Shown: positions 20,213 to 50,951 of the stretch, in pieces
Numbering within the stretch: position 1 is the stretch's first letter
Layout of the letters: each line of letters opens with the position of its first letter
NCBI GenBank assembly: GCA_003663355.1
Contig: QMZV01000002.1
Location: 1 to 52,169 of the forward strand
DNA: 52,169 nt
DNA from: Candidatus Aenigmatarchaeota archaeon
GTDB lineage: Archaea > Aenigmatarchaeota > Aenigmatarchaeia > QMZS01
Direction of reading: 5' to 3'
Notes under the pieces: generated by a model
What the model was told of the DNA's origin: nothing
What the model saw: only the letters and a program-made list of their open reading frames with translations
Databases searched by the model: none
Translations under genes and position numbers: made by a program

Positions 20213-20231
20213 ATTATTACACTGTTATAAT
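20213..20231 (+). promoter_or_regulatory. 19-bp near-palindromic box ATTATTACACTGTTATAAT
   Basis: Exact consensus copy, ending 38 bp upstream of the 20269 start and preceded by GTTTGTAA. Confidence 0.7.
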
Positions 20232-20268
20232 TTTCATAAAATTATGTTTTTTGTAGAGTTAAAAGATT

Positions 20269-21666
20269 ATGAAAAAATTAATTTTGTTATTTTTTCTAAT
20301 TTTTGTTTTTCCTGCAAATGCAGAAGTAATTCACAATATTTCTTTAGAAGGAGACTGGGCTGTAATAAACTCAACTTTGATTCTAAAATCAGATGAAAAA
20401 ATAGATTACTGGAATTTAAAAATAATGTTGCCAGAAAATGCAGAGATTGTAGAACTAAAAGATGAAATTTCAAAAATAAATTACAATTTTTCAAAATCGG
20501 AATTAGTATTCAGAACAAACAAAAAGAAAGCAAATACAAGAATTGTAAACTTAATTTTCAAAAAGAAAATTGAAGAAAAATACGGACTTAAAATTGCTGA
20601 TTTGGATTTGTTTGGTTTTGAAAATGAGACAACAATAATTGCAGCAAAAAATGTTCATTATTTTTTTGTTCCTATGGCGCAGATAGAATATGGTAAGGAG
20701 ATAAAAGCAAAGAAAAAAGGAGGTTGTAATTTAAGAATAATCTATGGTGGAAAAAAAGAGAGCGAACATTATTTTACAAATTCTAATTTTAATTTAAGTT
20801 TGGTTGAGAGATATTATTTTGTTCCTGAAAGAATTACTGGATTAAAAATTCCTGTAAAGTTTCCGGTTGTTGTTTTACCTGATGAAAAATATAATAAGGA
20901 ATTAGAGAATTTTAGTTCTGGGACTTTTAGTAGAGGGATAATTTTTGTAAGAGAAAATTTGAGTGAAAAGGAAAAAATAGCAACAATTTTGCATGAGACA
21001 ACTCATGGTTTTAATTCTTTTGTTTTAGATTTTGATAAAACAAATATTTCTTGGTTTGATGAAGGGGTTGCATGTTATGTAACTTCTGTTATATTTAGAA
21101 TATTGAATGAAACAAAACCGCAGATTTTTGGAGAAGAAATTAGATGGAGAAATGGAACAACAATATATTCCCTTAAACCAAAATTAAAACCAGAGGATTT
21201 ATTTGAATATTATAAAAAAGGAGATAACTGGATGTTGGATTGGAATCCTAAAAAATATAGAGATGAATATAAAAGAGAATTTGGATATAGTTATTCAGAA
21301 TTGTTTATTAGAGAATATTTGTTTGAAAATGGAAGTTTGCATAAAATCTATAAAAGATTATTAGAGATTAATAAAAGTGTTGAGAATAAAGATGAAAGAA
21401 ACAAAATAATTTTGGATATTTTTGAAAAAGAATTCAAACCTTGCTACTCACTAAATTTAGAGGAAATAAGAAATTGCACAAGAAAATTAAATATGATGAG
21501 TTTTGAAATTCCGGCAACAGAAGGAAAAGAAATTACTTATAAAGTTGAAATTCCCAAAATTCATATTGAAGAAAATAATTCTTTGTTTTCTGATTTTGAA
21601 AATTTCTTTAATAAAATCTGCGAGATTCTTAATTCTTTTATTGAAAAGATTTTGGAATTAGCATGA
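20269..21666 (+). CDS. Secreted putative zinc metallopeptidase (HExxH...E, peptidase MA-like)
   Basis: Signal-like MKKLILLFFLIFVFPANA; ILHETTHGF (HExxH) followed 20 residues later by WFDEGVACY (third-ligand Glu context). Confidence 0.55.
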   Translation: MKKLILLFFLIFVFPANAEVIHNISLEGDWAVINSTLILKSDEKIDYWNLKIMLPENAEIVELKDEISKINYNFSKSELVFRTNKKKANTRIVNLIFKKKIEEKYGLKIADLDLFGFENETTIIAAKNVHYFFVPMAQIEYGKEIKAKKKGGCNLRIIYGGKKESEHYFTNSNFNLSLVERYYFVPERITGLKIPVKFPVVVLPDEKYNKELENFSSGTFSRGIIFVRENLSEKEKIATILHETTHGFNSFVLDFDKTNISWFDEGVACYVTSVIFRILNETKPQIFGEEIRWRNGTTIYSLKPKLKPEDLFEYYKKGDNWMLDWNPKKYRDEYKREFGYSYSELFIREYLFENGSLHKIYKRLLEINKSVENKDERNKIILDIFEKEFKPCYSLNLEEIRNCTRKLNMMSFEIPATEGKEITYKVEIPKIHIEENNSLFSDFENFFNKICEILNSFIEKILELA

Positions 21667-22286
21667 AAAAAATACCGATTCATTTGTTGAATTCGCAAAC
21701 TTATTGTGAGTATCAAATATATTTGGAATATGTAAAAGGTATAAAGGTTAAACCGACTTTAGAAATGAATAAAGGCAGAGAAATACATAATGCTTTGGAG
21801 AAAGAACATAAAAAGAAAGCAAAGTTCAAGTTAAGTGTAATGGATGCAATTAAAAAATCTCAAAAGGAAAAAATAACTCTCGTTGGTAGAGAAATTCCTG
21901 TTACTGGCAATTATTTGTATGGATTTATTGATGAGATACATCTCATGCCTGATCAGATTGTAATAATTGATGACAAACCAAACAGTTATCCATTCTTCGC
22001 AAATAAAAAACAAGTTTTTGGTTATTGCTTGGCATTTGAAGAACAATTTAAAACAAATTTTCCATTGATTGCTTGCATCAGGAATAGAGATAGTAAAAAG
22101 ATTGTCTGGAAAGAAACTTTTTCTGAGAATCATAAGGATATTGTTTTTGAATCTGTAAAAAGAATTTTGAGAATCATAAATCAGAATAAAAAGGCTGAAC
22201 CAACAAATAAAATCAACAAGTGTAAAAGTTGCAGGTTTAGAAATGTTTGTGATATCTACAAAATTAGATTTTCTAAGAGAGATTAA
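21663..22286 (+). CDS. Stand-alone Cas4-family PD-(D/E)xK nuclease with 4-Cys cluster
   Basis: N-terminal YCEYQIYLEY Cys; nuclease core IDEIHLMPDQIVIIDDKPN; QVFGY (QxxxY); C-terminal CKSCRFRNVC (Cx2Cx5C). Its start overlaps the upstream stop (ATGA at 21663-21666). Confidence 0.7.
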   Translation: MKKIPIHLLNSQTYCEYQIYLEYVKGIKVKPTLEMNKGREIHNALEKEHKKKAKFKLSVMDAIKKSQKEKITLVGREIPVTGNYLYGFIDEIHLMPDQIVIIDDKPNSYPFFANKKQVFGYCLAFEEQFKTNFPLIACIRNRDSKKIVWKETFSENHKDIVFESVKRILRIINQNKKAEPTNKINKCKSCRFRNVCDIYKIRFSKRD

Positions 22287-22789
22287 TTTTTAATCAAACA
22301 ACAAACCATTTTCACAATTTGTTCAACATTGAATTTCTCTGTATCAATAATCAAATCATAATTTTCAAGTTTGTATATGTCTACAGAGTAAAGTCTCTTG
22401 TATCTTTCTCTTTCTTCTTTTTCTCTTTCTCTTATTTTCTTTTCAACATCTTTTAAATTCAAATTGTCTCTTTTTGCAACTCTTTTCACTCTAACTTTCA
22501 AAGGAGCCTTCAGCCAGATTTTTAACTCCGGATTTGCAAAATAAAAACCCATCCTTGAATCTAATACGCAATTCTGTTCTATTTGTTTTTGTTTTTCATC
22601 TATTTCTTTATCAATTTCTAAATTTTTCTCTGCATATTTTAAAAATTCTGTTAATTCCATCTTCTTTTCTTTTGCTAATTTCTTGAAAATTTCTCCTGCC
22701 GAGATATATTTATAATTTAATTTTTTTGCTAATTCTTTTCCAATTACTGATTTTCCTGCCCCTATCTGGCCAGAGATTGTGATTATCAT
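22283..22789 (-). CDS. cmk: Cytidylate kinase, archaeal type
   Basis: MIITISGQIGAGKSVIGKELAKKLNYKYISAGEIFKKLAKE P-loop, then KIWLKAPLKVRVKRVAKRD, typical of archaeal CMP kinases. Confidence 0.85.
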   Translation of the reverse strand: MIITISGQIGAGKSVIGKELAKKLNYKYISAGEIFKKLAKEKKMELTEFLKYAEKNLEIDKEIDEKQKQIEQNCVLDSRMGFYFANPELKIWLKAPLKVRVKRVAKRDNLNLKDVEKKIREREKEERERYKRLYSVDIYKLENYDLIIDTEKFNVEQIVKMVCCLIKN

Positions 22790-23004
22790 AATTATAGGTT
22801 AGAGTAATTATACTTAGCACTTCATAAGATACATTTCTATCATTAGCATTTAAAGAATATCTCAGTGATCTCGGTGGATGGAAGATATTTGATAAAATAA
22901 TGGAAAAAGCAATTGTAGTGAGATTTGGGGGAGAATAACTTTGATTTAATTTTTTGTTATTTTAAGTAACAAAAAGTATTTAAAGTTTTTTGTGGAGTTT
23001 ATTT

Positions 23005-23268
23005 ATGGATAAAATAGGTACAATTTGTTTTACTACAACTATAGGGGCTATGATAGCGGAATTTCTACAAGGACGTCCAGAGGTGGCTTTGTCTATTCCT
23101 CTCGCTGCTGCACCAATATATATGATGGGTGGTGAAATTGCTGCATATCTCAAAAGCAGGAGAGAAATAAAAAAATTAGATCCCTATGAAGCAGAATTAA
23201 TTGGACATTGTGAAGTAGGAATAGATCATAAAGGGAGACCAACCTATAGGTATAGGTATTGGGAATAA
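23005..23268 (+). CDS. Hypothetical small protein with one or two hydrophobic segments
   Basis: ATG at 23005 (MDKIGTICFTTTIGAMIAEF...). No motif recognised. Confidence 0.4.
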   Translation: MDKIGTICFTTTIGAMIAEFLQGRPEVALSIPLAAAPIYMMGGEIAAYLKSRREIKKLDPYEAELIGHCEVGIDHKGRPTYRYRYWE

Positions 23269-23304
23269 AATTTTACTGATAAATTGATTATTTAAATTTT
23301 CAGT

Positions 23305-23535
23305 ATGGCAGAAGATGTTGTAAAATTGATAATGAATAGAGAAAACATTAGAAATATTGGTATAGTCGCTCTATCAATCATAGAAAAACGACTATGACAG
23401 ACAGGTTCTTTGCAGGGGGCAGGAATGCTTTCTGAAGAGTTGGCAGGAAAATCTTTAGAAGTCTGGAAGAAAAAAGAAATATTGAAAAAGGCAAGGGTAA
23501 AACCTCTTTCTTTATTTGACTCTTTAAAAAATTAA
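23305..23535 (+). pseudogene. Frameshifted N-terminal fragment of elongation factor 2 (aEF-2)
   Basis: Own translation MAEDVVKLIMNRENIRNIGIVALSIIEKRL*. A different reading frame then gives ...GAGMLSEELAGKSLEVW... The pattern IRNIGI(A)AHIDHGKTT..D.LLAGAGMISEELAG of aEF-2 is recognisable, but the G1 motif is destroyed and only about 75 codons are present. Confidence 0.55.
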
Positions 23536-25538
23536 ACCTTTTTCAAATACCCGCTCTTTGGTTCATAAAGCAAGCCTTCCCTTTTCAATTTTTCAATTAG
23601 TTCCCTCCAATCTGAAATTCCCTCTTCCTCTGCCTGAGCTCCGACATCCTCTACTGACACCTCTTTCATTTCTTTTTCTAATTTATCAACAATATCCAAT
23701 AAAACTCTGATTTTTGATCTCTGCGTTCCTGCAACAGAAGTTTCCATTCTGTCTATATCCAATTTATCTGTTTCAACATCAAAACCTAATTGTTTAAGAC
23801 TTGTCCGCATAAGTCTTATTGCTCTCTTAGCATCCTGTTTTATTGTTGTATCTCTTAAATTTATTTTTGCAGAGGCTTGAGCTAATCTTATTAATGCCTC
23901 AAATTGCCTGAATGTTATTGGCACAATCCTGTCCTCTTCTGAATACTTGCTTCTCGTTTCTATAAAAAATTTCTTAAATTCTTCCAAGGTTTCATCGCTC
24001 AATTTTACTTGTTTTATGTTTTGTTTTGAATAAGCAATGTATTTTCTCAATAATGAATGTTTTATCTCTGGCTCTGTTGTTTTTAAATCTTTTCTTGACA
24101 ACAGAACATGGTCAACAAGTTTTCTGTCCTCTTCTATATTCGGAACATCTCTTAAAGCAAATTTTAAATCAAATCTTGATAATAATGTTGGTGGTATATT
24201 TATCTGGTCTGCAATTGGTGTATAAATATCAAATCTACCGAGTTTTGGATTTGCTCCTGCTAAAACAGAAGTTTGAGCTGGGAGAGTAGCGACAATGCTT
24301 GCCTTTGCTATTGAAACTGAACCCTGTTCAAGTGCTTCGTGCATAGCTACCTGATCTTCTTTATTCATTTTTTCAAATTCATCTATAGCAAGCAATCCTT
24401 TGTTGCAAAGAACAAGAGCTCCGGCTTCCAGAACCCAACCTCCTGTGAACTCGTCCTTTCTAACTGTTGAGATTAACCCTGCTCCAGTTATCCCCTTTCC
24501 GGAAACATATTTTGAACGAGGGATTAATTTTGAAACCAATTTAAGTAATTGTGATTTTGCTGTGGCAGGGTCCCCTACAAGAAGAATATGTATATCTCCT
24601 CTTATCCTGGTTCCATCTGGCATCTCTGCAGGAGTTCCTCCAAAAAGTTGCAATAATATTGCTTCTTTCACTTCTCTGTTTCCATAAATTGATGGTGCAA
24701 GAGAATTCACAAGTTTTTCATAAATGTCCGGTCTTTTTGCTAATTCTAAAATTTCTTTTTCATCTTCCTTGCTGATTTCTATTTCCTCTAATTCTTTTTC
24801 AGCAAGCTCAATGTAATTTGCCTCAATATAAATGTCTGATTGCGTTGCTTCTCTTCCTCTAATGTTTCTTGGAAGTTCTTTTAATATTCCATTAACAAGA
24901 ATTCTGCTTCCTGGGTCTGTTTTTCTTTGCATTTCTGGAGTTGTTAGTTCTTTTTTTAAAAAAACCTTTACCTCCCCCGGTTTTTCACCTGATGTAATTT
25001 CAAATGGCTCTTGTAGAACAATCCATCTTGAATCATACATTTTTTTTTCAAGGAATTTAAAACCACCTCTTTTTTTACAGAGTGGGCAGACAAAAGGTTT
25101 TATAATTGTTGGGCCTCTTTGTTCTAAAGAAAATTTTTCTCCACATTCTTGGCATTCATATACTGTCTCGTAAATTCTTGGTTTTATCTCAGAGGCAATC
25201 TTCACAATCCCTTCCACATTTATAAACTTGTTAATATGTTCTACTCTTAAATTTCTGATTCTTATACTCTGCGTTTTTGGCAAATTCTTAAACTCTATTT
25301 CTACTTTATTTTCCAAATCAAAATCCTGAATTTTTTCCCTAAAAAAAGCTAGAGTTTCTTCTGGATTCTCCAACAAGTATTCCGCTAAGTCTGGATTAAA
25401 CTTGTCCAAATCAAAATAATCCAAAATTAAAGGTTTTTCATTTGTAGAAGCAAAAACTAACTCTTCTTCTTTTGTCTTTAGAAAGTCATAAACTTGTTCT
25501 TTCAGATTTTGTTGATTGCTCATTATAAAACTTCTCAT
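23532..25538 (-). CDS. mcm: MCM replicative helicase
   Basis: Zn finger CQECGEKF...CPLCKKRG, Walker A ILLVGDPATAKSQLLK, Walker B LLAIDEFEKM, arginine finger SRFDL, C-terminal wHTH. An alternative ATG at 25523 is equally possible. Confidence 0.95.
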   Translation of the reverse strand: MRSFIMSNQQNLKEQVYDFLKTKEEELVFASTNEKPLILDYFDLDKFNPDLAEYLLENPEETLAFFREKIQDFDLENKVEIEFKNLPKTQSIRIRNLRVEHINKFINVEGIVKIASEIKPRIYETVYECQECGEKFSLEQRGPTIIKPFVCPLCKKRGGFKFLEKKMYDSRWIVLQEPFEITSGEKPGEVKVFLKKELTTPEMQRKTDPGSRILVNGILKELPRNIRGREATQSDIYIEANYIELAEKELEEIEISKEDEKEILELAKRPDIYEKLVNSLAPSIYGNREVKEAILLQLFGGTPAEMPDGTRIRGDIHILLVGDPATAKSQLLKLVSKLIPRSKYVSGKGITGAGLISTVRKDEFTGGWVLEAGALVLCNKGLLAIDEFEKMNKEDQVAMHEALEQGSVSIAKASIVATLPAQTSVLAGANPKLGRFDIYTPIADQINIPPTLLSRFDLKFALRDVPNIEEDRKLVDHVLLSRKDLKTTEPEIKHSLLRKYIAYSKQNIKQVKLSDETLEEFKKFFIETRSKYSEEDRIVPITFRQFEALIRLAQASAKINLRDTTIKQDAKRAIRLMRTSLKQLGFDVETDKLDIDRMETSVAGTQRSKIRVLLDIVDKLEKEMKEVSVEDVGAQAEEEGISDWRELIEKLKREGLLYEPKSGYLKKV

Positions 25539-25558: not shown

Positions 25559-25577
25559 GTTATTACGGTGTTATATG
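25559..25577 (+). promoter_or_regulatory. Near-palindromic box variant GTTATTACGGTGTTATATG
   Basis: Lies 21-39 bp upstream of the mcm ATG at 25538 and is fused on its left to GGGTTTTGT (25552-25560). Confidence 0.6.
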
Positions 25578-29484: not shown

Positions 29485-29522
29485 AATGTTATTAATTTAA
29501 ATTTAATAAAAATATAATGTAT

Positions 29523-30416
29523 CTATTTTGGACCTTTATATTTAAATAAATAAATAAAATCCCTTTTTTCTTCTGGAAGAATGTTTTCTATTTGTTTTTT
29601 TACTTCTTCCTTTGTTTTTCCTGAAGCAATGACAACATCTTCAAAAATTGCAAGATATAGTTTTGATGCAACCCCTAACTTGGAAAGTTTTTTGCTTATT
29701 CTCCTTGTGTTTGACTTGCCAATTTCCTGATAGTAGATTTTAAGCAATGAAGGGTTGTCTCTTAAAATCTGATTTATTTCATCAGCATATTCTATCCTGT
29801 TGTTTTCATTCCTGAGATAATATTTTAGCAACTCTTCTTTTCCTTTTTCTATTATTGGCGAATCTAAAGAGAGAATAATCCCATATTTAACTTTTGCTTC
29901 CTGATAATCTCTTTTAATCTCTCTTAAAATATTCCACCCAAAACAAACATTATAAAAATTAAAGACCCCACAGTAAACTATTTTTCCCTTGAAAGGTAAC
30001 AAAACAGTTTTTACAAGCACAGGCAAATCATTGCCTACAACATTTTCAATTTCATCACAAAGTCCAACAACACCGTAAACTTTTGGCTCATCTTTGTAGG
30101 CCTCAAAGAATACTGAATATTCTTTTAAGTGAGACATTATAAAAAATTCGCCTTTTATAAATTTTCTCCAGCCCTTGAGTACATTAAGTTCTTCCTGATT
30201 AAATTTAAACGGGTTCTCAGCAATAAAAGAATCAATTAATTCAGGATGATCATAAAGTTTTTTGTTGAGTTCTGCTATTTTTTCTGGAGGGTATCCCTTA
30301 TCTTTTAAAACAGGAGAGTTAAATCCTTTTATAACAGGGTATTTCTGGTTTGTATAAAACAGAAGAGAATCATTTAATTTGTAAAATAAGTTTACCTCCT
30401 CCTTTGACAATTTCAT
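29523..30416 (-). CDS. Hypothetical protein (297 aa), partner of the MM3350-like gene
   Basis: The start MKLSKEEV at 30416 overlaps the upstream stop as ATGA. No motif recognised. Confidence 0.6.
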   Translation of the reverse strand: MKLSKEEVNLFYKLNDSLLFYTNQKYPVIKGFNSPVLKDKGYPPEKIAELNKKLYDHPELIDSFIAENPFKFNQEELNVLKGWRKFIKGEFFIMSHLKEYSVFFEAYKDEPKVYGVVGLCDEIENVVGNDLPVLVKTVLLPFKGKIVYCGVFNFYNVCFGWNILREIKRDYQEAKVKYGIILSLDSPIIEKGKEELLKYYLRNENNRIEYADEINQILRDNPSLLKIYYQEIGKSNTRRISKKLSKLGVASKLYLAIFEDVVIASGKTKEEVKKQIENILPEEKRDFIYLFKYKGPK

Positions 30417-30964
30417 ATTCTCACCATCCACAAAAGTAATTTATTAACTTCTTCTAAATTAAATTCCTCGGGGTCAAACTCTCCGCCAATCCACTCTAGC
30501 ATACTTTCATGCTCTTCATGTTTAGGGTCTTTTATAGCTTCTAAAAATTCTTCATAACCATAAACTCCTCCGCAGTCTTCTGGAGGGCAAGCCCTTTTTC
30601 CAGCAATGCAGACCGGATATTTTTTTGAATTGTCTTTTTCAAGGATTTTTTCAACTGTGATTGTGTGTTCCCATCTGTCACCGAAATCATATATATAATA
30701 AAACATTTGTTTTTCTGCTTTTAAAAATTCTGAAAGTTTAACCTCTTTAGAATTTACTACTTCAAACCCTAACTCCTCGTCCGGTTCGCTTATTCTCAAA
30801 CCATATAGTTTAAACTCATACATATGATAATTCTCCCAACCCATTACATTCTGAATAATTTCATGAAGCTCTTCAAAAGTGATGGAATCTTCTACCAAAA
30901 ATCTTCTCCATATTGGTGGTCTTATACCATTCAGTCTGATTTTTAATTGTAATATTTTTGTCAT
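30413..30964 (-). CDS. MM3350-like / plasmid pRiA4b ORF-3-like domain protein
   Basis: LQLKIRLNGIRPPIWRRFLVEDSITFEELHEIIQNVMGWENYHMYEF and C-terminal CPPEDCGG match the PRiA4_ORF3 family pattern. ATG at 30964 (MTKILQLK) is preferred over the GTG at 31009, which lies inside repeat X. Confidence 0.7.
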   Translation of the reverse strand: MTKILQLKIRLNGIRPPIWRRFLVEDSITFEELHEIIQNVMGWENYHMYEFKLYGLRISEPDEELGFEVVNSKEVKLSEFLKAEKQMFYYIYDFGDRWEHTITVEKILEKDNSKKYPVCIAGKRACPPEDCGGVYGYEEFLEAIKDPKHEEHESMLEWIGGEFDPEEFNLEEVNKLLLWMVRI

Positions 30965-30992
30965 AAATATATCTATAAAAAGCATTTGTTTA

Positions 30993-31076
30993 AAACTCAA
31001 GTTTGACACCCCCCTTACAAATCCGCCTGAAAGTTAAAAATTTTGGACTCTACAAAATTTATGTATCAACATTTTA
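30993..31076 (+). repeat. Interspersed repeat, copy X
   Basis: aaCTCAAGTTTGACACcccCCTTAcAAATCC...GTTAAAAATTTTGGaCTCTACAAAATTTATgtATCACATTT-type sequence. See copies at 4535-4611 and 34533-34630. Confidence 0.8.
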
Positions 31077-31262
31077 AGCTTTTTTCAATCCCTTTATTGA
31101 AGAAACTTTGTCGGTATCTCAATCCCCAACTCTTGAAGCATAGTCACTTTTTCCTCTATACGTCTTAATTCCACACACTTTATCTTTTTCAGTTCTCTTT
31201 TCTTCCAATTTTTCTTTCCATTTGAATTCTAAACCAACAAATATAACTTCTCTAACATTAAA

Positions 31263-32033
31263 CTATTTTTGATTCTTTTCTTTTAGGGCTTTCTTTATAA
31301 CATTCAGAACTTCTTCAAATTTAGGGACTTCTCTTACCAATTGTTTTAACTCAATTTCCCAGATTTTCTCTTTTTCAAGAAGTTTTTTCAAGAATTTTGT
31401 TTTATTCCATTCTTCGTTATAATATTTTAGTTTTTCTTTAATTAAGTTCAAATCAAATTCAACACCTTTTCTTAGAAGAAACCACAAATCATAAACATCC
31501 CTCGCTTTGTCTCTTGTTAGAATTGCTCTTACCTTCTCTGCTAAAATTTCTTTTTCATTCATTATTAAAAGGGATATTTTTGGTATCTCTGAATAAATGG
31601 AAATATACTCAGCAATTAATGGTTCTAAATTTATTGAAGATTTTGTATTTATATCCATTCTTATTTGAGATAATGTTTGATTCGTCCCTTTATATAAAGG
31701 TCCTTTAGTTCTTATAATAACAGAATAACTGTTAAAAAATTTTTTCTTGCTTAATATTTTTGCATCCACACCAAAAAGTTCTAAATCAGAAATTATTTTT
31801 TTAATCAAATTATTTATATCCAATTTTTTTCTAAGTGTAAAATCTATATCTTCGCTAAATCTGTCTAATTTGTAAAATTTATATAAACAAGTTCCTCCCT
31901 TAAATACAAGTTCATCTCCAGTCCTTCTTGATATGGACAGTAAGCATAAATCAATCAAATAATCTTTTTCAGTATAACCCAATCTCAATCCTTTTATTCT
32001 TGCTATTTTTCTTAATTCTTCTTCACTTATCAT
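31263..32033 (-). CDS. abiEii: AbiEii/AbiGii-family nucleotidyltransferase toxin (type IV TA, DUF1814)
   Basis: LVFKGGTCLYKFYKLDRFSEDIDFT nucleotidyltransferase core and C-terminal RDVYDLWFL are typical of AbiEii. Confidence 0.8.
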   Translation of the reverse strand: MISEEELRKIARIKGLRLGYTEKDYLIDLCLLSISRRTGDELVFKGGTCLYKFYKLDRFSEDIDFTLRKKLDINNLIKKIISDLELFGVDAKILSKKKFFNSYSVIIRTKGPLYKGTNQTLSQIRMDINTKSSINLEPLIAEYISIYSEIPKISLLIMNEKEILAEKVRAILTRDKARDVYDLWFLLRKGVEFDLNLIKEKLKYYNEEWNKTKFLKKLLEKEKIWEIELKQLVREVPKFEEVLNVIKKALKEKNQK

Positions 32034-32722
32034 ATTGACCTATTCACAATAATTTTCCACTCATTATTTTTCTCTCCTTTTTCTTTAAACATTGGATCCA
32101 GTAAAATATAGTTATAATCTATATATTTTTTTAGTACTTCGCATTTATAACCTTCTCTCTCAAGTAAGAACCCCAATCTCTTTATTAATGCTTTATTTTT
32201 TGTTTTTATAGCATATTTTATAAGTTTATTGTTATCTATTATCCTGCTCTTTATAGCTTTTATAATCTCATCCAGAGGAACATTTTTTATTAGTAAACTA
32301 TCTATTATTGCCTTTTCCTTATCAGCAATAAAAATATAAAATTCTCCATATCTTTCTTTTCTATAACCAAAAAAAGTCTTCATTTTTATAAATTTTATTT
32401 TATTTCCCAGAAAATTTATCTCATCTCTTGCTTTCTTTGTAGCTATTGTTATTTCATTTGGCAATTGCTCAGTAAAATTATAAAATCTTAAAGCAGTCCA
32501 AAAACTTATGTAAGAAGGTAATTGAATATAAGAAGCAAATATTAAAGGGTCTTCATGTAAAGTATACTTGCCTTTTTCTATTTTATAAATTATATTCTCT
32601 TTTCTTAATCTATAAAGTAATGTCCTTGCATATTCTCTTCTTTTTTTTGTAATTCTTATAAAGTCATTAAAGGTGAATAATGGATAAATTTTCAATTTAT
32701 CTATTAATTGAATTTTGTTCAT
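32030..32722 (-). CDS. abiEi: AbiEi-family antitoxin / wHTH transcriptional regulator
   Basis: N-terminal wHTH (FTFNDFIRITKKRREYARTLLYRLRKENIIYKIEKGKY) followed by ISFWTALRFY. It overlaps abiEii by 4 nt, the canonical operon order. Confidence 0.7.
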   Translation of the reverse strand: MNKIQLIDKLKIYPLFTFNDFIRITKKRREYARTLLYRLRKENIIYKIEKGKYTLHEDPLIFASYIQLPSYISFWTALRFYNFTEQLPNEITIATKKARDEINFLGNKIKFIKMKTFFGYRKERYGEFYIFIADKEKAIIDSLLIKNVPLDEIIKAIKSRIIDNNKLIKYAIKTKNKALIKRLGFLLEREGYKCEVLKKYIDYNYILLDPMFKEKGEKNNEWKIIVNRSI

Positions 32723-32804
32723 AATTAATATTTTGTTTATTTATAATAATCAAATTTGATTATTTTAGTAGATTGGAATATGAATTTCTCAAAGTTACCT
32801 GCAT

Positions 32805-32981
32805 TTAAATTTTCTTTTTATAAAGACCAGATTCAATATCTTTTTCTCCCAAAACCCAACCCAAAGCATCCATAACTCCCTTATAATATACACTAGCTCG
32901 CATATCTAATTTATTCTGGGCTTTCTCTCGCTCTTCCCTTGCATATTCTATAAATTTTCTAATTTCTTCTTCACTTCTCAT
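32805..32981 (-). CDS. Possible 58-aa protein
   Basis: Own translation MRSEEEIRKFIEYAREEREKAQNKLDMRASVYYKGVMDALGWVLGEKDIESGLYKKKI. It lies upstream of abiEi on the same strand and is below the track cutoff. Confidence 0.3.
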   Translation of the reverse strand: MRSEEEIRKFIEYAREEREKAQNKLDMRASVYYKGVMDALGWVLGEKDIESGLYKKKI

Positions 32982-32989
32982 AATCTTAT

Positions 32990-33091
32990 TTAAAATAGAT
33001 AATTTTTAATCTCTTCTTCGCTCCAGCCTTTCTCTTTTAATTCTTCTTCAATATTTTCTCTAACTTGACACCGATACTCTAATTCCATCAT
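32990..33091 (-). CDS. Possible 33-aa peptide
   Basis: Own translation MMELEYRCQVRENIEEELKEKGWSEEEIKNYLF. It ends 8 nt before the next small ORF and shares SEEEI(K/R) with it. Confidence 0.2.
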   Translation of the reverse strand: MMELEYRCQVRENIEEELKEKGWSEEEIKNYLF

Positions 33092-33292
33092 CCCCCAAAC
33101 AAAAAATAATTCGCACATAATTATATAAGTAGGCAAGAATTTTTATGCAATTATTTCATGAATTTTCATATTGGTCTTAAACAATATTTATTGCCACTAC
33201 GAAAAATTTCAATCCAACATTAGTCCACTTATAACTTGTAATATAGAAGTTTACTTTCATTATTTTTTTAGTAGAGAGTAAATATAAGTAAG

Positions 33293-33333
33293 TTGTCAGT
33301 TTATTGACAAAATATATTTAAATAATTGTCAGT
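33293..33333 (+). promoter_or_regulatory. Operator-like dyad TTGTCA-N6-TGACAA plus a second TTGTCAGT half-site flanking a TATA-like stretch
   Basis: TTGTCAGTTTATTGACAA at 33293-33310, ATATATTTAAATAA, then TTGTCAGT at 33326-33333, 5 bp before the ATPase ATG (33339). Confidence 0.4.
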
Positions 33334-33338
33334 ATATT

Positions 33339-34559
33339 ATGGAATATCTTTTTTTTAAACATAATCCTTGGTGGGAATACAAAAATTGGGAAAGTAAAGA
33401 CAAAAATATTAGAGATTTTAATTCAATGGATATAAAATGGATTCCTTCATGGATTGATGAAATCTCCTTAAAACCTTTTTCTCTGAATTTTATTATTGGT
33501 CCAAGACAAGTTGGTAAAACAACAGGCATCAAATTATTAATTAAAAATCTGCTAAAAAAGGTAAACAATCCTTACAGCATATTCTATTTTAATTGTGACT
33601 TTCTTTCCGATATAAAAGATTTAATTAATTTGATTGAAAATTATTTAAAGATAAAAGAATCCGAGAAAATAAAAACTTCTTTTATCTTTTTGGATGAAAT
33701 TACATCTTTAGAATATTGGTGGAAGCCAATAAAGGGATTTATAGATGTGGGAATTTTTGATAAAGATATATTAGTAATTTCAGGTTCTTCAAGCATAAGA
33801 ACAAAAAAGTATTCTGAATCTTTTCCTGGCAGAAGAGGTAGAGGAAAAAATATCACTGTTTTACCTCTTTCTTTTTTTGAATATTTAAAAGTTCATAATA
33901 CAGATATAAAGAAAAGTAATGAATTTCAAATTAGAGGATTATTCAAAAAATATTTAAGTACGGGTGGTTTTCCAAAGAGTATAAATAAAGTTGAATTTGA
34001 AGAAGAATTGGTAAAAAGCATAGAAAGAGAAATTTTTAATGTTGGTAAAGATGTAGAGTTATTTAGAAAAATAATTCTGAAAATTATAGAAAAATTACCT
34101 TCTTCTTTTTCTTATAATATTATCTCCTCTAATTTAGGAATTTCTCACAATACTGTAAGAGATTATATGCAAACTATGGAAGATTTGTTTATTTTAAAAA
34201 TAATTTACTGGAAATATGGAAAAGAAATAGAGTTTAGAAAAGATAAAAAAATATGTTTTAGAGATCCGTATCTAGTAAAAGCATTTTGTAATGTGTACGG
34301 TTGTTCTTTAAGGGAGGATTTTTTATATGAAAATATAGTTCAGGAGCATTTATTTAGAAAATTTGGAGAGATTTACTACTTTAAGAATAAGTTTGAGATT
34401 GATTGTATTGCTAAGAATTTAAAGATAGAAGTGAAAGCAGGTAAACCGCATAGAAAATATCCTAAAGGTGTTTTAATTTTAGATAAAGAAAGAATTCCCA
34501 GATTTTTAGTAGATATCTATTCGGAGAAGCAGAATTCAAACTCAACTTTGACACTTTGA
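33339..34559 (+). CDS. AAA+ ATPase of the AAA_14/DUF4143 type (second copy in window)
   Basis: Walker A GPRQVGKTTG, Walker B IFLDEITSL, STGGFP and a later wHTH-like SHNTVRDYMQTMEDLFIL. Same architecture as 16593-17795. Confidence 0.8.
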   Translation: MEYLFFKHNPWWEYKNWESKDKNIRDFNSMDIKWIPSWIDEISLKPFSLNFIIGPRQVGKTTGIKLLIKNLLKKVNNPYSIFYFNCDFLSDIKDLINLIENYLKIKESEKIKTSFIFLDEITSLEYWWKPIKGFIDVGIFDKDILVISGSSSIRTKKYSESFPGRRGRGKNITVLPLSFFEYLKVHNTDIKKSNEFQIRGLFKKYLSTGGFPKSINKVEFEEELVKSIEREIFNVGKDVELFRKIILKIIEKLPSSFSYNIISSNLGISHNTVRDYMQTMEDLFILKIIYWKYGKEIEFRKDKKICFRDPYLVKAFCNVYGCSLREDFLYENIVQEHLFRKFGEIYYFKNKFEIDCIAKNLKIEVKAGKPHRKYPKGVLILDKERIPRFLVDIYSEKQNSNSTLTL

Positions 34560-34700
34560 GTCTAAAACCCCCTTAAATCTCCAAATTCTTAAAAATGTAA
34601 GGACGAAAATTTTGCCTATAAAAAAATCTGGGTTTAAACAAGGGTTTTGTTGAGTTTTATTAGGGTTTAGAGAGATGGGTTTAAAAGTGTCAAACTTGGG
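34533..34700 (+). repeat. Interspersed repeat copy Y, with a 14-bp inverted-repeat pair delimiting a MITE-sized 160-bp segment
   Basis: CTCAACTTTGACAC (34541-34554) and its inverted partner GTGTCAAACTTGGG (34687-34700). The interior contains CCCCCTTAAATCTCC, GAAAATTTTGCC and GGGTTTTGTTGAGTTTTAT (34642-34660). The left end overlaps the ATPase stop. Confidence 0.7.
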
Positions 34701-34836
34701 ATAAAACATCTAGTTTCTTTATTAGTTCTATTGTTTTCATAATATTCTTAATTTATATATTTAAAATTATCAAAATTGATAATTATGTATTTGTTTTATA
34801 AGAATTAGAACATTGCTTGTGGGTTATCCATTAAAG

Positions 34837-34899
34837 ATTATTACGGTGTTATAATTTAATAAAAAAGAGTTGGTTTGTGAATTATTACACTGTTATAAT
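34837..34899 (+). promoter_or_regulatory. Paired near-palindromic boxes (ATTATTACGGTGTTATAAT, 25-bp spacer, ATTATTACACTGTTATAAT)
   Basis: Boxes at 34837-34855 and 34881-34899. The whole 63-bp module is nearly identical to 49961-50025. Confidence 0.75.
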
Positions 34900-46453: not shown

Positions 46454-46483
46454 TTTATCTTTTGTTTTTATTTTTTGTTAATA

Positions 46484-47107
46484 ATGTTTAAGGTTGTTGT
46501 TTTTGATATGGATGGAACTTTAATAGATTCTATAAGTGTTTGGCTGTCTTTGTTTAAGAAAATTCTTAAAAAATATGGAATTGATGTTGATGAAAGATAT
46601 ATCAAAAATCAGTTTGGTAAACAAGATAAAGAGATTATTTCTTCTGTCACAAAAAAAGAAGAGGTGTTTGATTTTTTTGAGAAAGAGAAAAATAATAAAA
46701 TATTTTTAGATAAGTTCAAAATCTTTCCTTTTGTTAGAGATACTCTTTGCCAAATAAAAAGAAAAGGGATTAAAATTGCTATTGTTACTGGAAATAACAA
46801 AAAGATGCTAAAGTTTCTGTTAAAGAAATTTCATTTAAATGAATTGGTGGATTATTCTGTCTGTGCAGAGGATGTGGATAAAGGAAAACCAAATCCAGAA
46901 ATGCTTTTGAAAGTTTTGGAAGTTTATAGGGTGAATAAAGAAGATGTGATATATGTTGGAGATGCTCCTTATGATGTTGAAATGGCAAAAAATGCTGGAG
47001 TTAAAATTATGGTTGTTTTAACAGGTGTTTTGAACAGAAAATTGGCAGAAAAATTAAAACCTGATTTTATTTTTGAAGATGTAAGAGGGGTTTTAAAATT
47101 ATTGTAA
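46484..47107 (+). CDS. HAD-superfamily hydrolase (phosphatase, subfamily IA-like)
   Basis: Motif I VVFDMDGTLIDS, motif II IVTGN, motif III/IV KGKPNP...YVGDAPYDVEMAKNAG. ATG at 46484 is preferred over the TTG at 46475. Confidence 0.85.
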   Translation: MFKVVVFDMDGTLIDSISVWLSLFKKILKKYGIDVDERYIKNQFGKQDKEIISSVTKKEEVFDFFEKEKNNKIFLDKFKIFPFVRDTLCQIKRKGIKIAIVTGNNKKMLKFLLKKFHLNELVDYSVCAEDVDKGKPNPEMLLKVLEVYRVNKEDVIYVGDAPYDVEMAKNAGVKIMVVLTGVLNRKLAEKLKPDFIFEDVRGVLKLL

Positions 47108-47497
47108 AATTATTTTTACTTCATTTTTGCTTATTTTTTTAAATTCTAAGTTTGTTTTTCCTGGTCCTATTTCTATCTTGTTAAATTTTATTTTTTCAAA
47201 TGTTTTGTTGTAGGTTTTATATTCTGTTGAAAAAGAGATTGAATTATTTGAGAATTTTAGAATTCCTGTTTTAAATTCTATTTGTATTTTTCTTGAGGAA
47301 TTTATTGGTTCTGAGATTAAATCTGAGATTGTGATTGAAAGGAAATTCACAACATTCTTTCCGTGTTCGAATTCCAACTCTGCTTTTTTTTCTTCTATTA
47401 AAGGAAGCCCAAACAGCAAAATCGTCCCAATAATGGATATTGAAAATGCAATTATTAAAACAGATGAGACAACTACATTCATAATATTATTTTGCAA
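47099..47497 (-). CDS. Hypothetical protein with N-terminal hydrophobic helix (archaeal pilin-like class III signal possible)
   Basis: MQNNIMNVVVSSVLIIAFSISIIGTILLFGLPLIEE then a beta-rich region. The pilin-like call is weak. Confidence 0.4.
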   Translation of the reverse strand: MQNNIMNVVVSSVLIIAFSISIIGTILLFGLPLIEEKKAELEFEHGKNVVNFLSITISDLISEPINSSRKIQIEFKTGILKFSNNSISFSTEYKTYNKTFEKIKFNKIEIGPGKTNLEFKKISKNEVKIILQ

Positions 47498-47976
47498 AAT
47501 CCTGCTTCATATAATATCTTTGTAAAATCTGGTTCAAGTTCTGTTTCTTCTCCTTTTTTAAAAGAATAAACTCTCCCTGATGGAGATAAAATCTCTGGTA
47601 TGTCTTTTAAAAAAACAACCTTTACTTTTGTATTTTTTCTTTCTTTTGTTTCTTTATTAATATAATTCTGTTCAAAAGAATGATCATATTTTCTTATAAT
47701 TTTAATCAACTCTAAATATAATTCTTTCTCTAAATCTTCTTAATTTTTAGGAAGGTTGTTTGTTTTGTAAAATAAAAAGGCAAGATTTAAGATTTTCTTT
47801 TTTCTTAATTCAAAAATAGAATAAACAAGGTTTTTTGCGCTTTTTTCTTCTATTGTTCCTTTTTTTAGTTTAATGTAGTTAAATGCATTTTCATAAAAAT
47901 TTGGTGGTAGTTGTTGCAATTTTTCTCCTTTCTCTTTTTGCTTGATTTCCCGAATTTTCTCATATGTTAATATCAT
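47479..47976 (-). pseudogene. GINS subunit (Gins51/COG1711-like) with a single in-frame TAA at 47742-47740
   Basis: The two track ORFs (47740-47976 and 47479-47709) are in the same frame. Joined they read ...LTYEKIREIKQKEKGEKLQQLPPNFYENAFNYI...NNLPKN*EDLEKELYLELIKIIRKY...KVKVVFLKDIPEILSPSGRVYSFKKGEETELEPDFTKILYEAGFCKII. That is a GINS A-domain followed by a B-domain. The start overlaps the orc1/cdc6 stop by 4 nt. Confidence 0.65.
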
Positions 47977-49169
47977 GTTTCAAACATGTTAGAAAAAGTT
48001 GATTTTAAAATGTCAAAAGATTTTTTTGCAATTGCCAACCTGATTTCTCTTGTTCTTCCATATCTTCCTTTTGAAACAACTTTTGTTGAAATCAGTCCAA
48101 GCATATCTAATTCCGAAATTAAATCAGAAATTCTCCTTTGAGTTAGAGTTTTATATCCATTTCTCTTACATAGAGAAAGATAAACTTCATAAACATCTCC
48201 TGTCAGGATTTGGTCTTTGCCTTTTTCAAAAAGTTTTAAAATTGAGTAAAGAGTTAGTTGAGAATGTCTTGGTTGTGTTTTTGCTAATTCCGTAACTCTA
48301 TCTAATTCTAATTTTTGCTCTGCAAGGTCAACGTGTTTTTCTGTAATTTTTTTGTCTTCATTTCTTTCAGCAAGTTCTGCTGCCACTCTTAATAAATCCA
48401 AAGCCCTTCTTGCATCACCCTGTTCTTGAGCAGCTATTGCAGCACATTTTTCTATAACTCCTTCTGAACAAACTCCTGGTTTTAATGCAATTTTTGCTCT
48501 TTGTTGCAAAATATCTTTTAGTTGTAAGGCATTGTAAGGCGGAAAAATAATTTCTTCTTCTGATAAAGAACTTCTCACTCTCGGGTCTAAATCATCTGTA
48601 AAAGAAAGGTCGTTAGAAATCCCTATTATGCTAATTTTCGCATTTTTTAGTTCTGTGTTTATTCTTGTTAAATTGTATATAAGGCCGTCTCCAATTTTTT
48701 TAACTAATGCGTCTAATTCATCCAAAGCAAGCAAAATAATTTGCTCTTTTTCATCTATCAATTCAAATAATTTGTTGTATAATGATTCTGTAGGCAATCC
48801 TGTTTCAGGAACTGGGAAATTTAATTCTCTAAGGATATAAGCCAACATTCTGTACTCTGTATCTGCAGTTTTTTTTAATTTGCAGTTTATATAAACTGGT
48901 TTTAAATTTGTTGTGTTTGTTGATTTAAGTTCGCTAAAAATGTGTTTTATTACAACAGATTTTCCTGTTCCTGTAGTTCCGTATATGAAAAGATTGGATG
49001 GTTGCTCTAATTTTAAGGCAGGGGCTAAAACTTTTGCAATACTCATTATTTGCTCATCTCTATGCAAAATCTTATCTGGAATATAATTATGGGTTAATAA
49101 TTTTTTATCAAGAAAAAAACTTTCTTTGTTTATATAACTAGAAAAAAACTTCTTAAGTTTCTCTTGCAT
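47973..49169 (-). CDS. cdc6: Orc1/Cdc6 replication initiator
   Basis: LHRDEQIMSIAKVLAP, Walker A YGTTGTGKS, Walker B LALDELD, sensor motifs (GISND, GDARRALDLL) and a C-terminal wHTH. Confidence 0.95.
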   Translation of the reverse strand: MQEKLKKFFSSYINKESFFLDKKLLTHNYIPDKILHRDEQIMSIAKVLAPALKLEQPSNLFIYGTTGTGKSVVIKHIFSELKSTNTTNLKPVYINCKLKKTADTEYRMLAYILRELNFPVPETGLPTESLYNKLFELIDEKEQIILLALDELDALVKKIGDGLIYNLTRINTELKNAKISIIGISNDLSFTDDLDPRVRSSLSEEEIIFPPYNALQLKDILQQRAKIALKPGVCSEGVIEKCAAIAAQEQGDARRALDLLRVAAELAERNEDKKITEKHVDLAEQKLELDRVTELAKTQPRHSQLTLYSILKLFEKGKDQILTGDVYEVYLSLCKRNGYKTLTQRRISDLISELDMLGLISTKVVSKGRYGRTREIRLAIAKKSFDILKSTFSNMFET

Positions 49170-49302
49170 AACCTATATTTCAAGTAGAAATATTTATAGA
49201 TTTCTGTTGTTTACAATATTTTTATAAAAATAGAGTTTTGAATATCGTAGCCTGACTCCTATATTTCTTGTGGAAATAATAAAAATAATTAGAGAAGGAA
49301 AA

Positions 49303-49321
49303 ATTATTACAGTGTTATAAA
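49303..49321 (+). promoter_or_regulatory. Near-palindromic box ATTATTACAGTGTTATAAA
   Basis: Lies in the 198-bp intergenic region upstream of orc1/cdc6. Confidence 0.7.
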
Positions 49322-49367
49322 ATAGTCTTATTTAGGTAATGGGTAATGCTTTAATAAATCATTCGAA

Positions 49368-49865
49368 TCATTCGCTTTTATGTTTATATTTATAAAAAGC
49401 CATTCCTAATCTCAATCTTGCCCACGTACATAAACTTGGCGCTTCAAGAATATCCTCTTCATAAGGCATCAATCTTTCCAAAGAAGTATCTCTTGTTTCA
49501 ACTTCTTTTCCATTAGGATAGCTTTTATTAGTATGCACTAAGCAGTTCCCATTATTATCTATAGAATAAATATCTACTTGTTTTTCTTCAGGAGAAATTT
49601 CAAGCATTCTTACAATAGTCGGAAAAATCTTTGTGATACCAACATTTCTTAAATGATGAATATCAATATAGATTTTACGCCCATCTTCCAATTGCTTCTC
49701 CAATTCGCAAATATAGTGGTGAGCAAGATTTGGATTTAGTGCTTTTGCTTCTAATTTATCCATATCAAAAAAATCTACCCCTTCTACCAAACCAGATTTT
49801 TCAGGAGCTTTTGCAATTTCACCAAAAGCTTGTATTGTTTGTTTATAATGAGTGCTTTTTCTCAT
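49368..49865 (-). CDS. Hypothetical protein (165 aa)
   Basis: Well-composed ORF with no motif recognised. Confidence 0.5.
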   Translation of the reverse strand: MRKSTHYKQTIQAFGEIAKAPEKSGLVEGVDFFDMDKLEAKALNPNLAHHYICELEKQLEDGRKIYIDIHHLRNVGITKIFPTIVRMLEISPEEKQVDIYSIDNNGNCLVHTNKSYPNGKEVETRDTSLERLMPYEEDILEAPSLCTWARLRLGMAFYKYKHKSE

Positions 49866-49960
49866 AATAGATAGTATAAATTAAAAATATAAATTTATGC
49901 ATTGCTAAACTCTTCACTAAAATTTCAATTTATCAATTAGTTGTTTAGATGGGATATAAA

Positions 49961-50025
49961 ATTATTACAGTGTTATAATTTAATAAAAAAAGGTTTGGTT
50001 TTGTGAATTATTACACTGTTATAAT
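49961..50025 (+). promoter_or_regulatory. Paired near-palindromic boxes (ATTATTACAGTGTTATAAT, 27-bp spacer, ATTATTACACTGTTATAAT)
   Basis: Boxes at 49961-49979 and 50007-50025. The module is near-identical to 34837-34899. Confidence 0.75.
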
Positions 50026-50093
50026 TTCAATTTTGTATGGGGCATAATTTTTGATTTAAAAAATTTTAGGTTTAGGCTGGGTTTTGTTGAGTT

Positions 50094-50741
50094 TTATGAG
50101 GGTTTGAGGGAAAATTTCTTCAATTTCTTTAGAACTTTCTTTAAGGCACTTTGTAGGTTAGATTCTTGCTTTTCTTCCTCTTTTATTTTTTGCCTTATTT
50201 CTTCTATTTGTGCAATACTATTCCCTATTGAAATCGGTGTTGTACCTATTTTACTTGAGATCTCTTCTAGAGATAATTCATCCTTTTTTTCTGCTAAATA
50301 AATACAAGCACCTGCTATAGGACGAAAAGCGAAAGCGTATTCTTCAATATCTTTTTCAACAGAGTCATATAAAGATATGGCATTTTTTGTTTCTTCTTCA
50401 TCTAGTTCTAATTTTGGACCGTATACACTTATAAGTTTCTTTATAAATGCACTTCTGGGTATAATAGGTGGTTTTTCTCCATATTCTCTAGAAATCTTTG
50501 TAGATATTTTTGCAATATATCGAGGGTCTTCTCCAAGAGACTCTGCAATTTCCTCATATATTACTTGTTCACCTCTTTTTATAAGTTCTATATAGGCTAA
50601 AGCACCTGCTAATGCTGTTCTCCTTGGAATTCTCTTTTTTTCCTTTCTTTTTTCTTCTGTATAAGTTTCATATCTTTTCAGCATATTGTCTGCTACTTCT
50701 TTTCCATAATCCACTTGTATTATCTTGTATATTTGATCCAT
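50094..50741 (-). CDS. TFB-like protein with the two cyclin-fold repeats only (no Zn-ribbon or B-reader)
   Basis: RRTALAGALAYIELIKRGEQVIYEEIAESLGEDPRYIAKIS... and FRPIAGACIYLAEKKDELSLEEISSKIGTTPISIGNSI parallel the two cyclin repeats of the bona fide TFB at 36871. Start MDQIYKII at 50741 is preferred, because the upstream extension is hydrophobic and looks non-coding. Confidence 0.6.
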   Translation of the reverse strand: MDQIYKIIQVDYGKEVADNMLKRYETYTEEKRKEKKRIPRRTALAGALAYIELIKRGEQVIYEEIAESLGEDPRYIAKISTKISREYGEKPPIIPRSAFIKKLISVYGPKLELDEEETKNAISLYDSVEKDIEEYAFAFRPIAGACIYLAEKKDELSLEEISSKIGTTPISIGNSIAQIEEIRQKIKEEEKQESNLQSALKKVLKKLKKFSLKPS

Positions 50742-50932
50742 ATTTAATGCTGATCTCATAAAAATAAAATGTAAAAAAACTTTAAATACCCAATTATTAA
50801 TAAGTAAATACATTTGATTTTACAGATATAAATTGAATAAGAGAGAAAAAGATAATGTTTATAGTTTAATAGAAGAGACACAATTCACATTGGTTTATTG
50901 CCTTCCACTTGAAATAAAAGGGTCATAGTCTA

Positions 50933-50951
50933 ATTATTACACTGTTATAAT
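50933..50951 (+). promoter_or_regulatory. Near-palindromic box ATTATTACACTGTTATAAT
   Basis: Exact consensus copy between the AAA+/wHTH gene end (50979) and the TFB-like gene start. Confidence 0.7.

Follow-up and report, generated by a model that had tools for sequence, protein, structure and literature searches.

A conserved 19-bp palindrome beside the origin recognition boxes and replication genes of an Aenigmarchaeota lineage

What is the function of a 19-bp palindrome that recurs in the intergenic DNA around orc1/cdc6 and mcm? The question is raised by a 52,169-nt stretch of contig QMZV01000002.1 from a Candidatus Aenigmatarchaeota archaeon (the window, meaning the whole stretch), a member of a DPANN lineage whose Orc1 and MCM homologs bear Candidatus Aenigmarchaeota names. 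A first-pass annotation left two options for the palindrome, which we name the M box: an AT-shifted form of the origin recognition box (ORB), or the operator of a regulator of a replication regulon. Comparison with contigs and loci of relatives (given below by L-numbers) argues that the M box is real and under selection. Our preferred reading, to which we assign a probability of roughly 0.55, is that a dimeric winged-helix protein binds it and that it has two roles, one as an accessory element of the origin and one as an operator. A literature search did not find the M sequence in any paper.

The M box and the origin beside orc1

The sequence ATTATTACASTGTTATAAT occurs in the window with zero or one mismatch at 20213, 34837, 34881, 49303, 49961, 50007 and 50933 (n = 7); the chance expectation in shuffled sequence is 0.06 matches, even when up to three mismatches are allowed. 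A 21-nt position weight matrix, built from the M copies of the window and its relatives and used with a threshold of ≥10 bits, finds 12 sites in 59 kb (the window and its 7-kb continuation) against 0.9 expected from Markov controls. All 12 fall within 20.2–53.5 kb, and three of the matrix sites lie just past the right end of the window. The first-pass annotation had listed eight strong copies. All eight stand at the coordinates it gave and in intergenic DNA, with C at the centre of four and G at the centre of the other four, as it had said; the copy at 25559 is weak, however (15.6 bits), which leaves seven strong ones, and only four of the listed copies, instead of the five counted, lie in the 1.7 kb around orc1. 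The preceding GGTTT(T)GTGA (GGTTTGTGA flank), described as usual, is present at 34881 and 50007 and, loosely, at 20213.

The dyad is as first described, with one T/T mismatch. Its extended consensus, A-ATTATWAC-ASt-GTWATAAT-T, places the centres of the ATTATWAC half-sites ~10 bp apart, that is, one helical turn. The arms are kept and the central three positions vary (ACT, AGT, GGT, ACC, ATT), and the flanks of 56 non-redundant copies are nearly devoid of information except for A at −1 and TT at +1/+2. As a hairpin the box folds with −0.6 to −1.6 kcal/mol and a z-score of −0.4 to −1.6, which is no better than shuffled sequence and argues for a duplex site rather than a structure. A hairpin or terminator was rejected on the same ground, and neither Rfam nor ARAGORN gave a match in the window. 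Reading of the flanks also removed a CRISPR-like mini-array, as the 'spacers' of the tandem boxes resemble one another, and a C/D-box sRNA, as there is no D box. A plain TATA box is possible at mcm and at ORF465, and impossible for the copies that lie 45–200 nt from start codons.

Alignment of the orc1 upstream regions of several lineages identifies canonical ORBs, of the form TTCCAnnnGAAAT-A-tAGGgg, beside the M box. In the window the orc1/cdc6 gene (398 aa; 47973..49169, minus strand) is followed by a GINS gene. The ORB TTCTACTTGAAATATAGGTT (49170..49189, minus strand) abuts the orc1 start codon; TTCCACAAGAAATATAGGAGT, an ORB with its G-string (49255..49275, minus strand), starts 106 nt before the orc1 ATG; and TTCCACTTGAAATAAAAGGGTC, likewise with a G-string (50903..50924, plus strand), is inverted with respect to these two. 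One relative carries the classical archaeal form, CTCCATAGGAAATTAGGGGGG. Gaps of 27 nt and 133 nt separate the origin M box (49303..49321, plus strand) from the outer ORB and from the orc1 ATG, respectively, and the whole module, namely M, 27–28 nt, an ORB from −106, an ORB at −20 and the ATG, has identical spacing in the window, L125, L128, L173 and L235, with 133–134 nt between the end of M and the orc1 ATG in all five. A more distant example is provided by the complete genome CP070662.1 (L234; 44% GC), whose homolog of the AAA+ protein discussed below is only 40% identical. In this genome 24 nt separate TTATATAACAGTGTTATACTT from CTCCAGTGGAAATAAAGGGG, with an AT-rich stretch and an ORB-like element on the opposite side, the order being ORB-like element, AT-rich stretch, M and ORB.

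In the window strain the ORBs flank two open reading frames, ORF165 (49368–49865) and ORF239 (50094–50813), and a tandem M pair on the plus strand (49961..50025, with boxes at 49961–49979 and 50007–50025) lies between the inverted ORBs, upstream of the strain-specific ORF165. Neither frame is found in L121–L123, in which the inverted ORBs are 304 nt apart with 76% AT between them and three M boxes inside; L206 retains a 64-aa remnant of ORF165, and in L235 the stretch between the ORBs measures 246 nt and holds one M box. The last box of the window (50933..50951, plus strand) is 9 nt beyond the G-string of the 50903 ORB and 27 nt past the stop codon of the AAA+ gene, and this pairing of ORB and M recurs in L143/L173 and in L125. 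These alignments argue that the M box is a fixed part of the origin, at 24–28 bp from an ORB and within the AT-rich stretch between ORBs.

Could the M box itself be an AT-shifted ORB or mini-ORB for canonical Orc1/Cdc6? The copies cluster beside orc1 and belong to the origin, the box has dyad symmetry, and G-rich runs lie 8–14 nt to one side of some copies. However, the region also has conserved canonical ORBs with G-strings, which adjoin the M box and recur in every relative; because they do, Orc1 has its own sites and M is a different element. At 50933 the adjacent G-rich run belongs to the ORB at 50903, whose G-string it is. The ORB consensus, TTCCA-n3-GGAAA(t/c) usually followed by a G-string, is absent from M, which has no TTCCA/GGAAA core and no sequence in common with the ORBs at its side; the two coexist at fixed spacing. 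It is the true ORBs, not the M copies, that form the inverted copies flanking the AT-rich region at orc1; the M copies lie between or beside them, and others lie tens of kb away, dispersed over more than 30 kb, and on other contigs. We find this first option of the earlier annotation hardly credible.

Its remark that all copies share one plus-strand orientation (TTAC...GTTA) holds within the window; the copies at the orthologous orc1 and winged helix-turn-helix (wHTH) genes of sister lineages are flipped. The orientation has no fixed relation to genes. A polarity that follows the direction of replication, with a flip at the iteron field in the window, was rejected, as the orthologs are flipped in L125 and L173 and the orientation is mixed on L226.

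To our knowledge, DPANN replication origins have not been dissected so far, and the only archaeal non-ORB origin motif with a known binder is the ucm of Sulfolobus, bound by UBP and reported in 2025. It is also the closest precedent for M: it lies between ORB2 and ORB3 of oriC1, which cannot fire without it (Dhanaraju et al. 2025, PMC12141716). It is a double-stranded site of 11 bp bound by a monomer of UBP, a 111-aa beta-hairpin protein that has 329 further sites, mostly intergenic (PMC12141716). The M box is likewise a non-ORB element in the AT-rich region between inverted ORBs (L121, L235 and L234), and it recurs at many other, mainly intergenic, positions. It differs from ucm in being a dyad of 19–21 bp, which implies a dimeric binder, in its fixed places before mcm, alba, orc1 and a wHTH gene, and in its DPANN lineage. 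The likeness to ucm brings up the possibility that M is the site of an abundant nucleoid-associated protein, comparable to UBP or Fis/IHF, that is needed at the origin and exerts no gene-specific regulation. The M boxes between the origin ORBs together with dispersed intergenic sites of every gene-orientation class would suit such a protein; the further peaks of UBP are enriched in intergenic DNA. Yet the core set of M loci is small, specific and conserved, unbiased stretches of 10–20 kb contain zero M sites, and the short monomer site of ucm contrasts with the 19-bp dyad of M; this explanation is very unlikely.

A separate field of GTTCAC(G) iterons with a period of 9–11 bp fills the spacer between the start of the AAA+ gene and the stop codon of the next gene, which encodes a 98-aa wHTH protein; it starts at 52049 and occupies 52049..52169 (plus strand) before it runs past the window. 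In L119, an 85-kb ENA contig that is 99.95% identical to the window, and in L162, the array continues to ~52236. It counts 25–28 copies in L121, L125, L231 and L235, with an AT-rich middle in L121; two distant genomes have no iteron array beside the AAA+ homolog gene. It has the appearance of either a second origin, similar to those of plasmids, or an extended regulatory array. As a whole, the locus yields a map of a DPANN origin that can be tested: canonical ORBs, a conserved palindrome of non-ORB type set at constant spacing, and iterons in a field of their own.

M loci conserved outside the origin

Upstream of three further genes the M box also holds its position: 20–35 nt before mcm (five lineages), 92–105 nt before alba (five lineages) and 153–180 nt before the gene of the 98-aa wHTH protein (six lineages). 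The last two genes, the wHTH gene and then alba, lie immediately beyond the right end of the window. The mcm gene (668 aa; 23532..25538, minus strand) has the weak box GTTATTACGGTGTTATATG upstream (25559..25577, plus strand), 20 nt from the annotated ATG and 35 nt from the one to which the starts of the relatives align; the version in sister strains matches better, and the site is kept in five lineages. The first-pass annotation had advised comparison of orthologous intergenic DNA in related genomes. A set position upstream of orthologous genes, the signature of a phylogenetic footprint, is found in 4–6 lineages at orc1, mcm, alba and the wHTH gene. In pairwise comparison of these alignments the M columns are 71–86% identical and the remaining intergenic columns 39–56%, and the lineages that share the four M loci have proteins only 60–84% identical. 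The conserved core set would comprise the origin together with orc1, the mcm and alba genes and, in the origin cluster, the gene of the 98-aa wHTH protein. The reading as operator of a replication regulon gains comparative support from the set distances at orc1-gins, mcm, alba and the wHTH gene and from the neighbors of M on unrelated contigs, listed below; the TFB gene (36871–37842), which had been counted into the regulon, has no box.

How the box would act at these genes may be suggested by its place in the promoters. At alba and at dnaG, M immediately precedes a TATA-like box on its 5' side. The mcm copy overlaps the expected place of the TATA/BRE (B recognition element) region, and because of this overlap repression by occlusion is suggested there; the direction of regulation is an inference.

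The wider distribution of M includes genes of DNA metabolism and is not restricted to them. Sister strains of the window are found in hydrothermal metagenomes, and an exact-match scan of metagenome contigs returned 96 stretches, which reduce to ~56 non-redundant copies; these are on low-GC contigs, the majority from the same vent samples, and nearly every copy is intergenic. A scan of genome contigs with 16 specified bases gave at least three useful archaeal loci (L012, L080 and L108) and, among the matches listed, chance singletons in AT-rich bacteria. Near gene starts, M is found at a DnaG-like Toprim gene (46 nt), uvrD (46 nt), a KaiC/RadB-like gene (73 nt) and a CMP kinase gene (49 nt); near gene stops, at the small subunit of PolD (DP1; 20 nt), nurA (9 nt), scpA (16 nt) and nreA. 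M adjoins unrelated genes as well (PP-loop ATPase, FKBP, MtrA-like, epimerase, integrase). About eight of the 18 new site families touch a DNA-metabolism gene, in a rough count made with no formal background; by that rough count the share is far above that of DNA-metabolism genes in a small genome. Per genome, the number of copies seems to be in the tens and not in the hundreds.

A single motif that serves the origin and also the promoters of replication or cell-cycle genes is familiar from bacteria, in the DnaA boxes and in the CtrA sites of the Caulobacter Cori and cell-cycle promoters. The M box is similar in its presence in an origin and at promoters of replication genes; it differs in that proteins and motifs are unrelated, that the domain of life is that of Orc1 and MCM, and that regulation through M is presumed. 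Were a second motif, unrelated to ucm, to mark the mcm, orc1 and alba genes as well, this would point to accessory origin factors as a common feature of archaea, and such factors could tie the activity of the origin to the expression of the replication machinery.

Candidate binders of the M box

That a protein binds the M box, and which protein it is, we infer. According to the preferred reading, M would be the double-stranded site of a dimeric winged-helix protein of the Aenigmarchaeota lineage, with two uses. The first would be that of an accessory, non-ORB origin element, one copy of which lies 27–28 bp from the outer ORB; the ~43 bp from centre to centre would put the two on the same face of the DNA, and the protein on the origin M could modulate Orc1-dependent loading of MCM or the transcription of orc1. 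The second use would be that of an operator-like site at DNA-metabolism genes, including repression of mcm by occlusion.

The likeliest candidate for this binder is the protein that we call AAA+352, encoded within the origin cluster (50979..52037, minus strand), which combines an AAA_22 ATPase with a C-terminal winged helix of MecI/BlaI/CopY type. Its residues 277–340 match PF03965 (Penicillinase_R) with 33.5 bits, compared with a Pfam cut-off of 22.6 bits, so that a wHTH protein of this type is indeed encoded nearby. In Aenigm- and Nanoarchaeota, no fewer than 344 proteins, each ~350 aa long, belong to the family. Its profile matches the DNA-binding domains of MecI (1sd6/1okr) and BlaI (1p6r), and R313, N316 and N317 of the winged helix are invariant over 46 homologs. 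The AlphaFold2 model (pLDDT 90) is closest to the structures of yeast Cdc6 and archaeal Orc1/Cdc6. This likeness is confined to the predicted fold: a paralog of Orc1 by sequence was considered and rejected, as BLASTP and phmmer find no similarity to the neighboring Orc1.

Operators of this repressor class lend some guidance. CopY, BlaI and MecI bind KACAnnTGTM dyads, with the operator RNYKACANNTGTMRNY (PMC7253601). Like these sites (TACAnnTGTA / RNYKACANNTGTMRNY, PMC7253601), the M box has inverted (T/A)ACA...TGT(T/A) half-sites, AT-rich flanks and paired copies, and a protein with such a winged helix is encoded in its cluster. The exact KACA-NN-TGTM core is absent: M, and also the palindrome P2 described below, read WACA-N-TGTW, in which the half-sites agree and the spacing differs. 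Other differences are the archaeal setting, with no link to copper or beta-lactams, and the fusion of the AAA+352 winged helix to a Cdc6-like AAA+ module instead of a dimerization or sensor domain. We take the half-site likeness as a lead drawn from analogy.

A bolder version of this proposal is that M is recognized by a new, DPANN-wide second origin factor, the ~350-aa Cdc6/Orc1-like AAA+ family with the MecI/BlaI-type winged helix; bound to M, the factor would stand at a constant distance from Orc1 on the ORB and, by way of the same box, couple the state of the origin to the transcription of orc1-gins, mcm and alba. We put it forward tentatively, as possible and still some way from probable. 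If true, archaea would possess their own equivalent of the DnaA/CtrA logic, with an Orc-like scaffold as its basis. The locus in any case singles out this widespread, uncharacterized Cdc6-like AAA+/winged-helix family as a candidate factor. Members of the AAA+/winged-helix family are also encoded in two distant complete Aenigmatarchaeota genomes, L233 (CP070809.1) and L234, among genes of DNA metabolism: DnaG-like Toprim genes and a CMP kinase gene in L233, and RadA, RPA and Hjc in L234, where the gene is 7.7 kb from orc1. The family gene is not always adjacent to orc1.

The second candidate binder is the 98-aa wHTH protein, and the explanation built on it is that M is the operator of this protein, which would regulate its own gene and a regulon of replication and chromatin genes, while AAA+352 would occupy the GTTCAC iterons; the kind of element would remain the same. 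A 9-1-9 palindrome fits a small dimeric wHTH protein, and the protein is 100% identical among strains and 47–70% identical across lineages. Its gene has M 153–180 nt upstream in six lineages and, in addition, a palindrome of its own in the core promoter. The latter, P2, TTGnACAC(T/C)GTnCAA, lies 17–25 nt upstream of the gene and is conserved, with symmetric covariation, in five lineages (6600–6625 of L119, beyond the window; L125 at 6381; L173 at 9357; L231; L126), and it has the ACAsTGT centre of M. Against this identification, positions ±5 and ±6 consistently set P2 (G/C) apart from M (T/A), and P2 is unique to the 98-aa wHTH promoter in 690 kb, which suggests a different specificity; its half-site, GTTCA, is closer to the iterons than to M; and the protein itself is only weakly assigned to a family. 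We regard the wHTH protein as a rather doubtful binder of M. A pairing of Orc1 with the ORBs, AAA+352 with M, and the wHTH protein with P2 and the iterons would be tidy and is unproven.

Turnover of M copies and the surrounding DNA

Several observations weigh against the preferred reading of M as an origin element and operator. At least six site families lie in convergent spacers, beyond XPD, nurA, an HD-domain gene and others, at which no promoter is expected, and some boxes overlap stop codons. Copies vary among strains that are 95–98% identical, and the inter-box spacer of ~37 nt is a repeat common to unrelated loci; some of the apparent conservation could be produced by concerted evolution among the members of such a family. 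As to the binder, the centre of M has 1 nt, versus 2 nt in CopY/BlaI operators, M is missing next to the gene of the AAA+ homolog in the two distant genomes, and the 98-aa wHTH protein, with P2 in its own promoter, is an equally local candidate.

The observations on copies and spacers suggest that M may be a selfish or neutral dispersed repeat, of the repetitive extragenic palindrome (REP)/bacterial interspersed mosaic element (BIME) or miniature inverted-repeat transposable element (MITE) type, which would have spread among intergenic regions through duplication, gene conversion or transposition and whose position at replication genes would be incidental. As in such families, M is an imperfect palindrome, intergenic, arranged in tandem clusters with conserved spacers, and gained and lost among near-identical strains, in presence and in number. 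Tandem copies are spaced by 28, 44–46, 53–57 or 74 nt, and two longer families of M-bearing modules, TTTAATTCTCAA...GTTTGTRA-M and M-CTAAATnnTTTGTTAGAG, are common to unrelated loci. The ~70-nt module with the 20213 copy is absent in L141, L141 has an M box upstream of the CMP kinase gene that is not in the window, and L164/L209 have two copies where L187 has one at the same place. The degenerate copy of the first-pass annotation at 1358 is present as a relic half-site (1358..1376, plus strand) with its left half kept; L182 has the full box there, followed by a MITE, and the two sequences part at the box centre. Other M copies likewise adjoin true MITEs. What M lacks is the structure of such elements: its hairpin is unstable, no terminal inverted repeats, target duplications or parent insertion sequence with M-matching ends were found, the 20213 insertion/deletion left no duplication, and the copy number is low. 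Boxes formed by abutted ends of insertion sequences or MITEs were likewise rejected, since no element has TGTWATAAT...ATTATWACA ends and the insertion sequence beside M in L126 has unrelated ends. Four loci keep M at the same distance in 4–6 lineages, over a long evolutionary distance, and the orc1 copy is found even in the genome of 44% GC. A repeat with no function is an unlikely explanation for the family as a whole. Part of the family does turn over as repeat modules, as the strain-variable, tandem and convergent-spacer copies imply, and the extra copies of the window (the tandem pairs, the 20213 module and the copies at 3' ends) appear, on comparison of strains, to be lineage-specific products of duplication and loss of modules of 45–70 nt.

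These extra copies are found in varied surroundings. The exact box at 20213..20231 (plus strand) is 37 nt upstream of ORF465, which encodes an HExxH-like protein with a signal peptide and is followed by a Cas4-like nuclease gene. The tandem pair at 34837..34899 (plus strand; 34837–34855 and 34881–34899, with a 25-nt spacer) has the 3' end of an AAA_14 ATPase gene on one side and that of XPD (34916–36736, minus strand) on the other, at the edge of a strain-variable island. A symmetric variant that had not been listed, TATATAACAGTGTTATAAA (42442..42460; 19.1 bits), is inside the 5' end of the conserved ORF99. The island (~29500–34700) encodes an AbiEii toxin, a PRiA4_ORF3 protein and an AAA_14+DUF4143 ATPase, with a PadR gene nearby, and the island junctions of L181 and L149 are close to the M pair at 34.8 kb.

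The MITE family mentioned above is ~170 nt long, with terminal inverted repeats CTCAAsTTTGACACTTT and a GGGTTT-rich interior. It is represented at 34541–34706 and ~50026–50200, with related ends at 4530–4603 and 30989–31062; copies adjoin M boxes, and one is at a different locus in L182. Three M boxes are found on a predicted viral contig from the same vent sample (L130/L132 = L193/L204; IMG/VR UViG_3300021507_000132; 59–62 kb, 34% GC), one in the form with T in both arms, ATTATTACAGTGTAATAAT, and two inside open reading frames. An exact 19-mer in the 74-bp promoter from which znuC-like and znuA genes diverge (L163, L167, L188, L200 and L208; 27–29% GC) was rejected as a member of the family: these contigs have no similarity to the window, and the match overlaps a TGTTATA-A-TATAACA dyad. 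It is probably a Zur-type box and a coincidence.

The remaining observations concern genes and repeats of the window. The GINS gene (47479–47976, minus strand) has an in-frame TAA at codon 79 (47740–47742), where L119 has TTA (Leu); either it is a pseudogene in the window strain or the assembly is in error. The mcm gene has no intein in the window and one of ~1.6 kb in strains L137 and L207, and the RtcB gene (39291–42182) contains an intein with a LAGLIDADG domain. A 742-nt gap free of open reading frames (22790–23531) includes a 148-nt block (23304–23451) that is 80% conserved on the unrelated contigs L164, L187 and L209; the block, which matches neither Rfam families nor tRNAs, may encode an RNA that lacks annotation. 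Finally, two direct repeats of 77 nt (16496–16572 and 17755–17831), 92% identical and with small hairpins in each, flank an AAA_14 ATPase frame (16593–17795), and the whole may be a mobile cassette.

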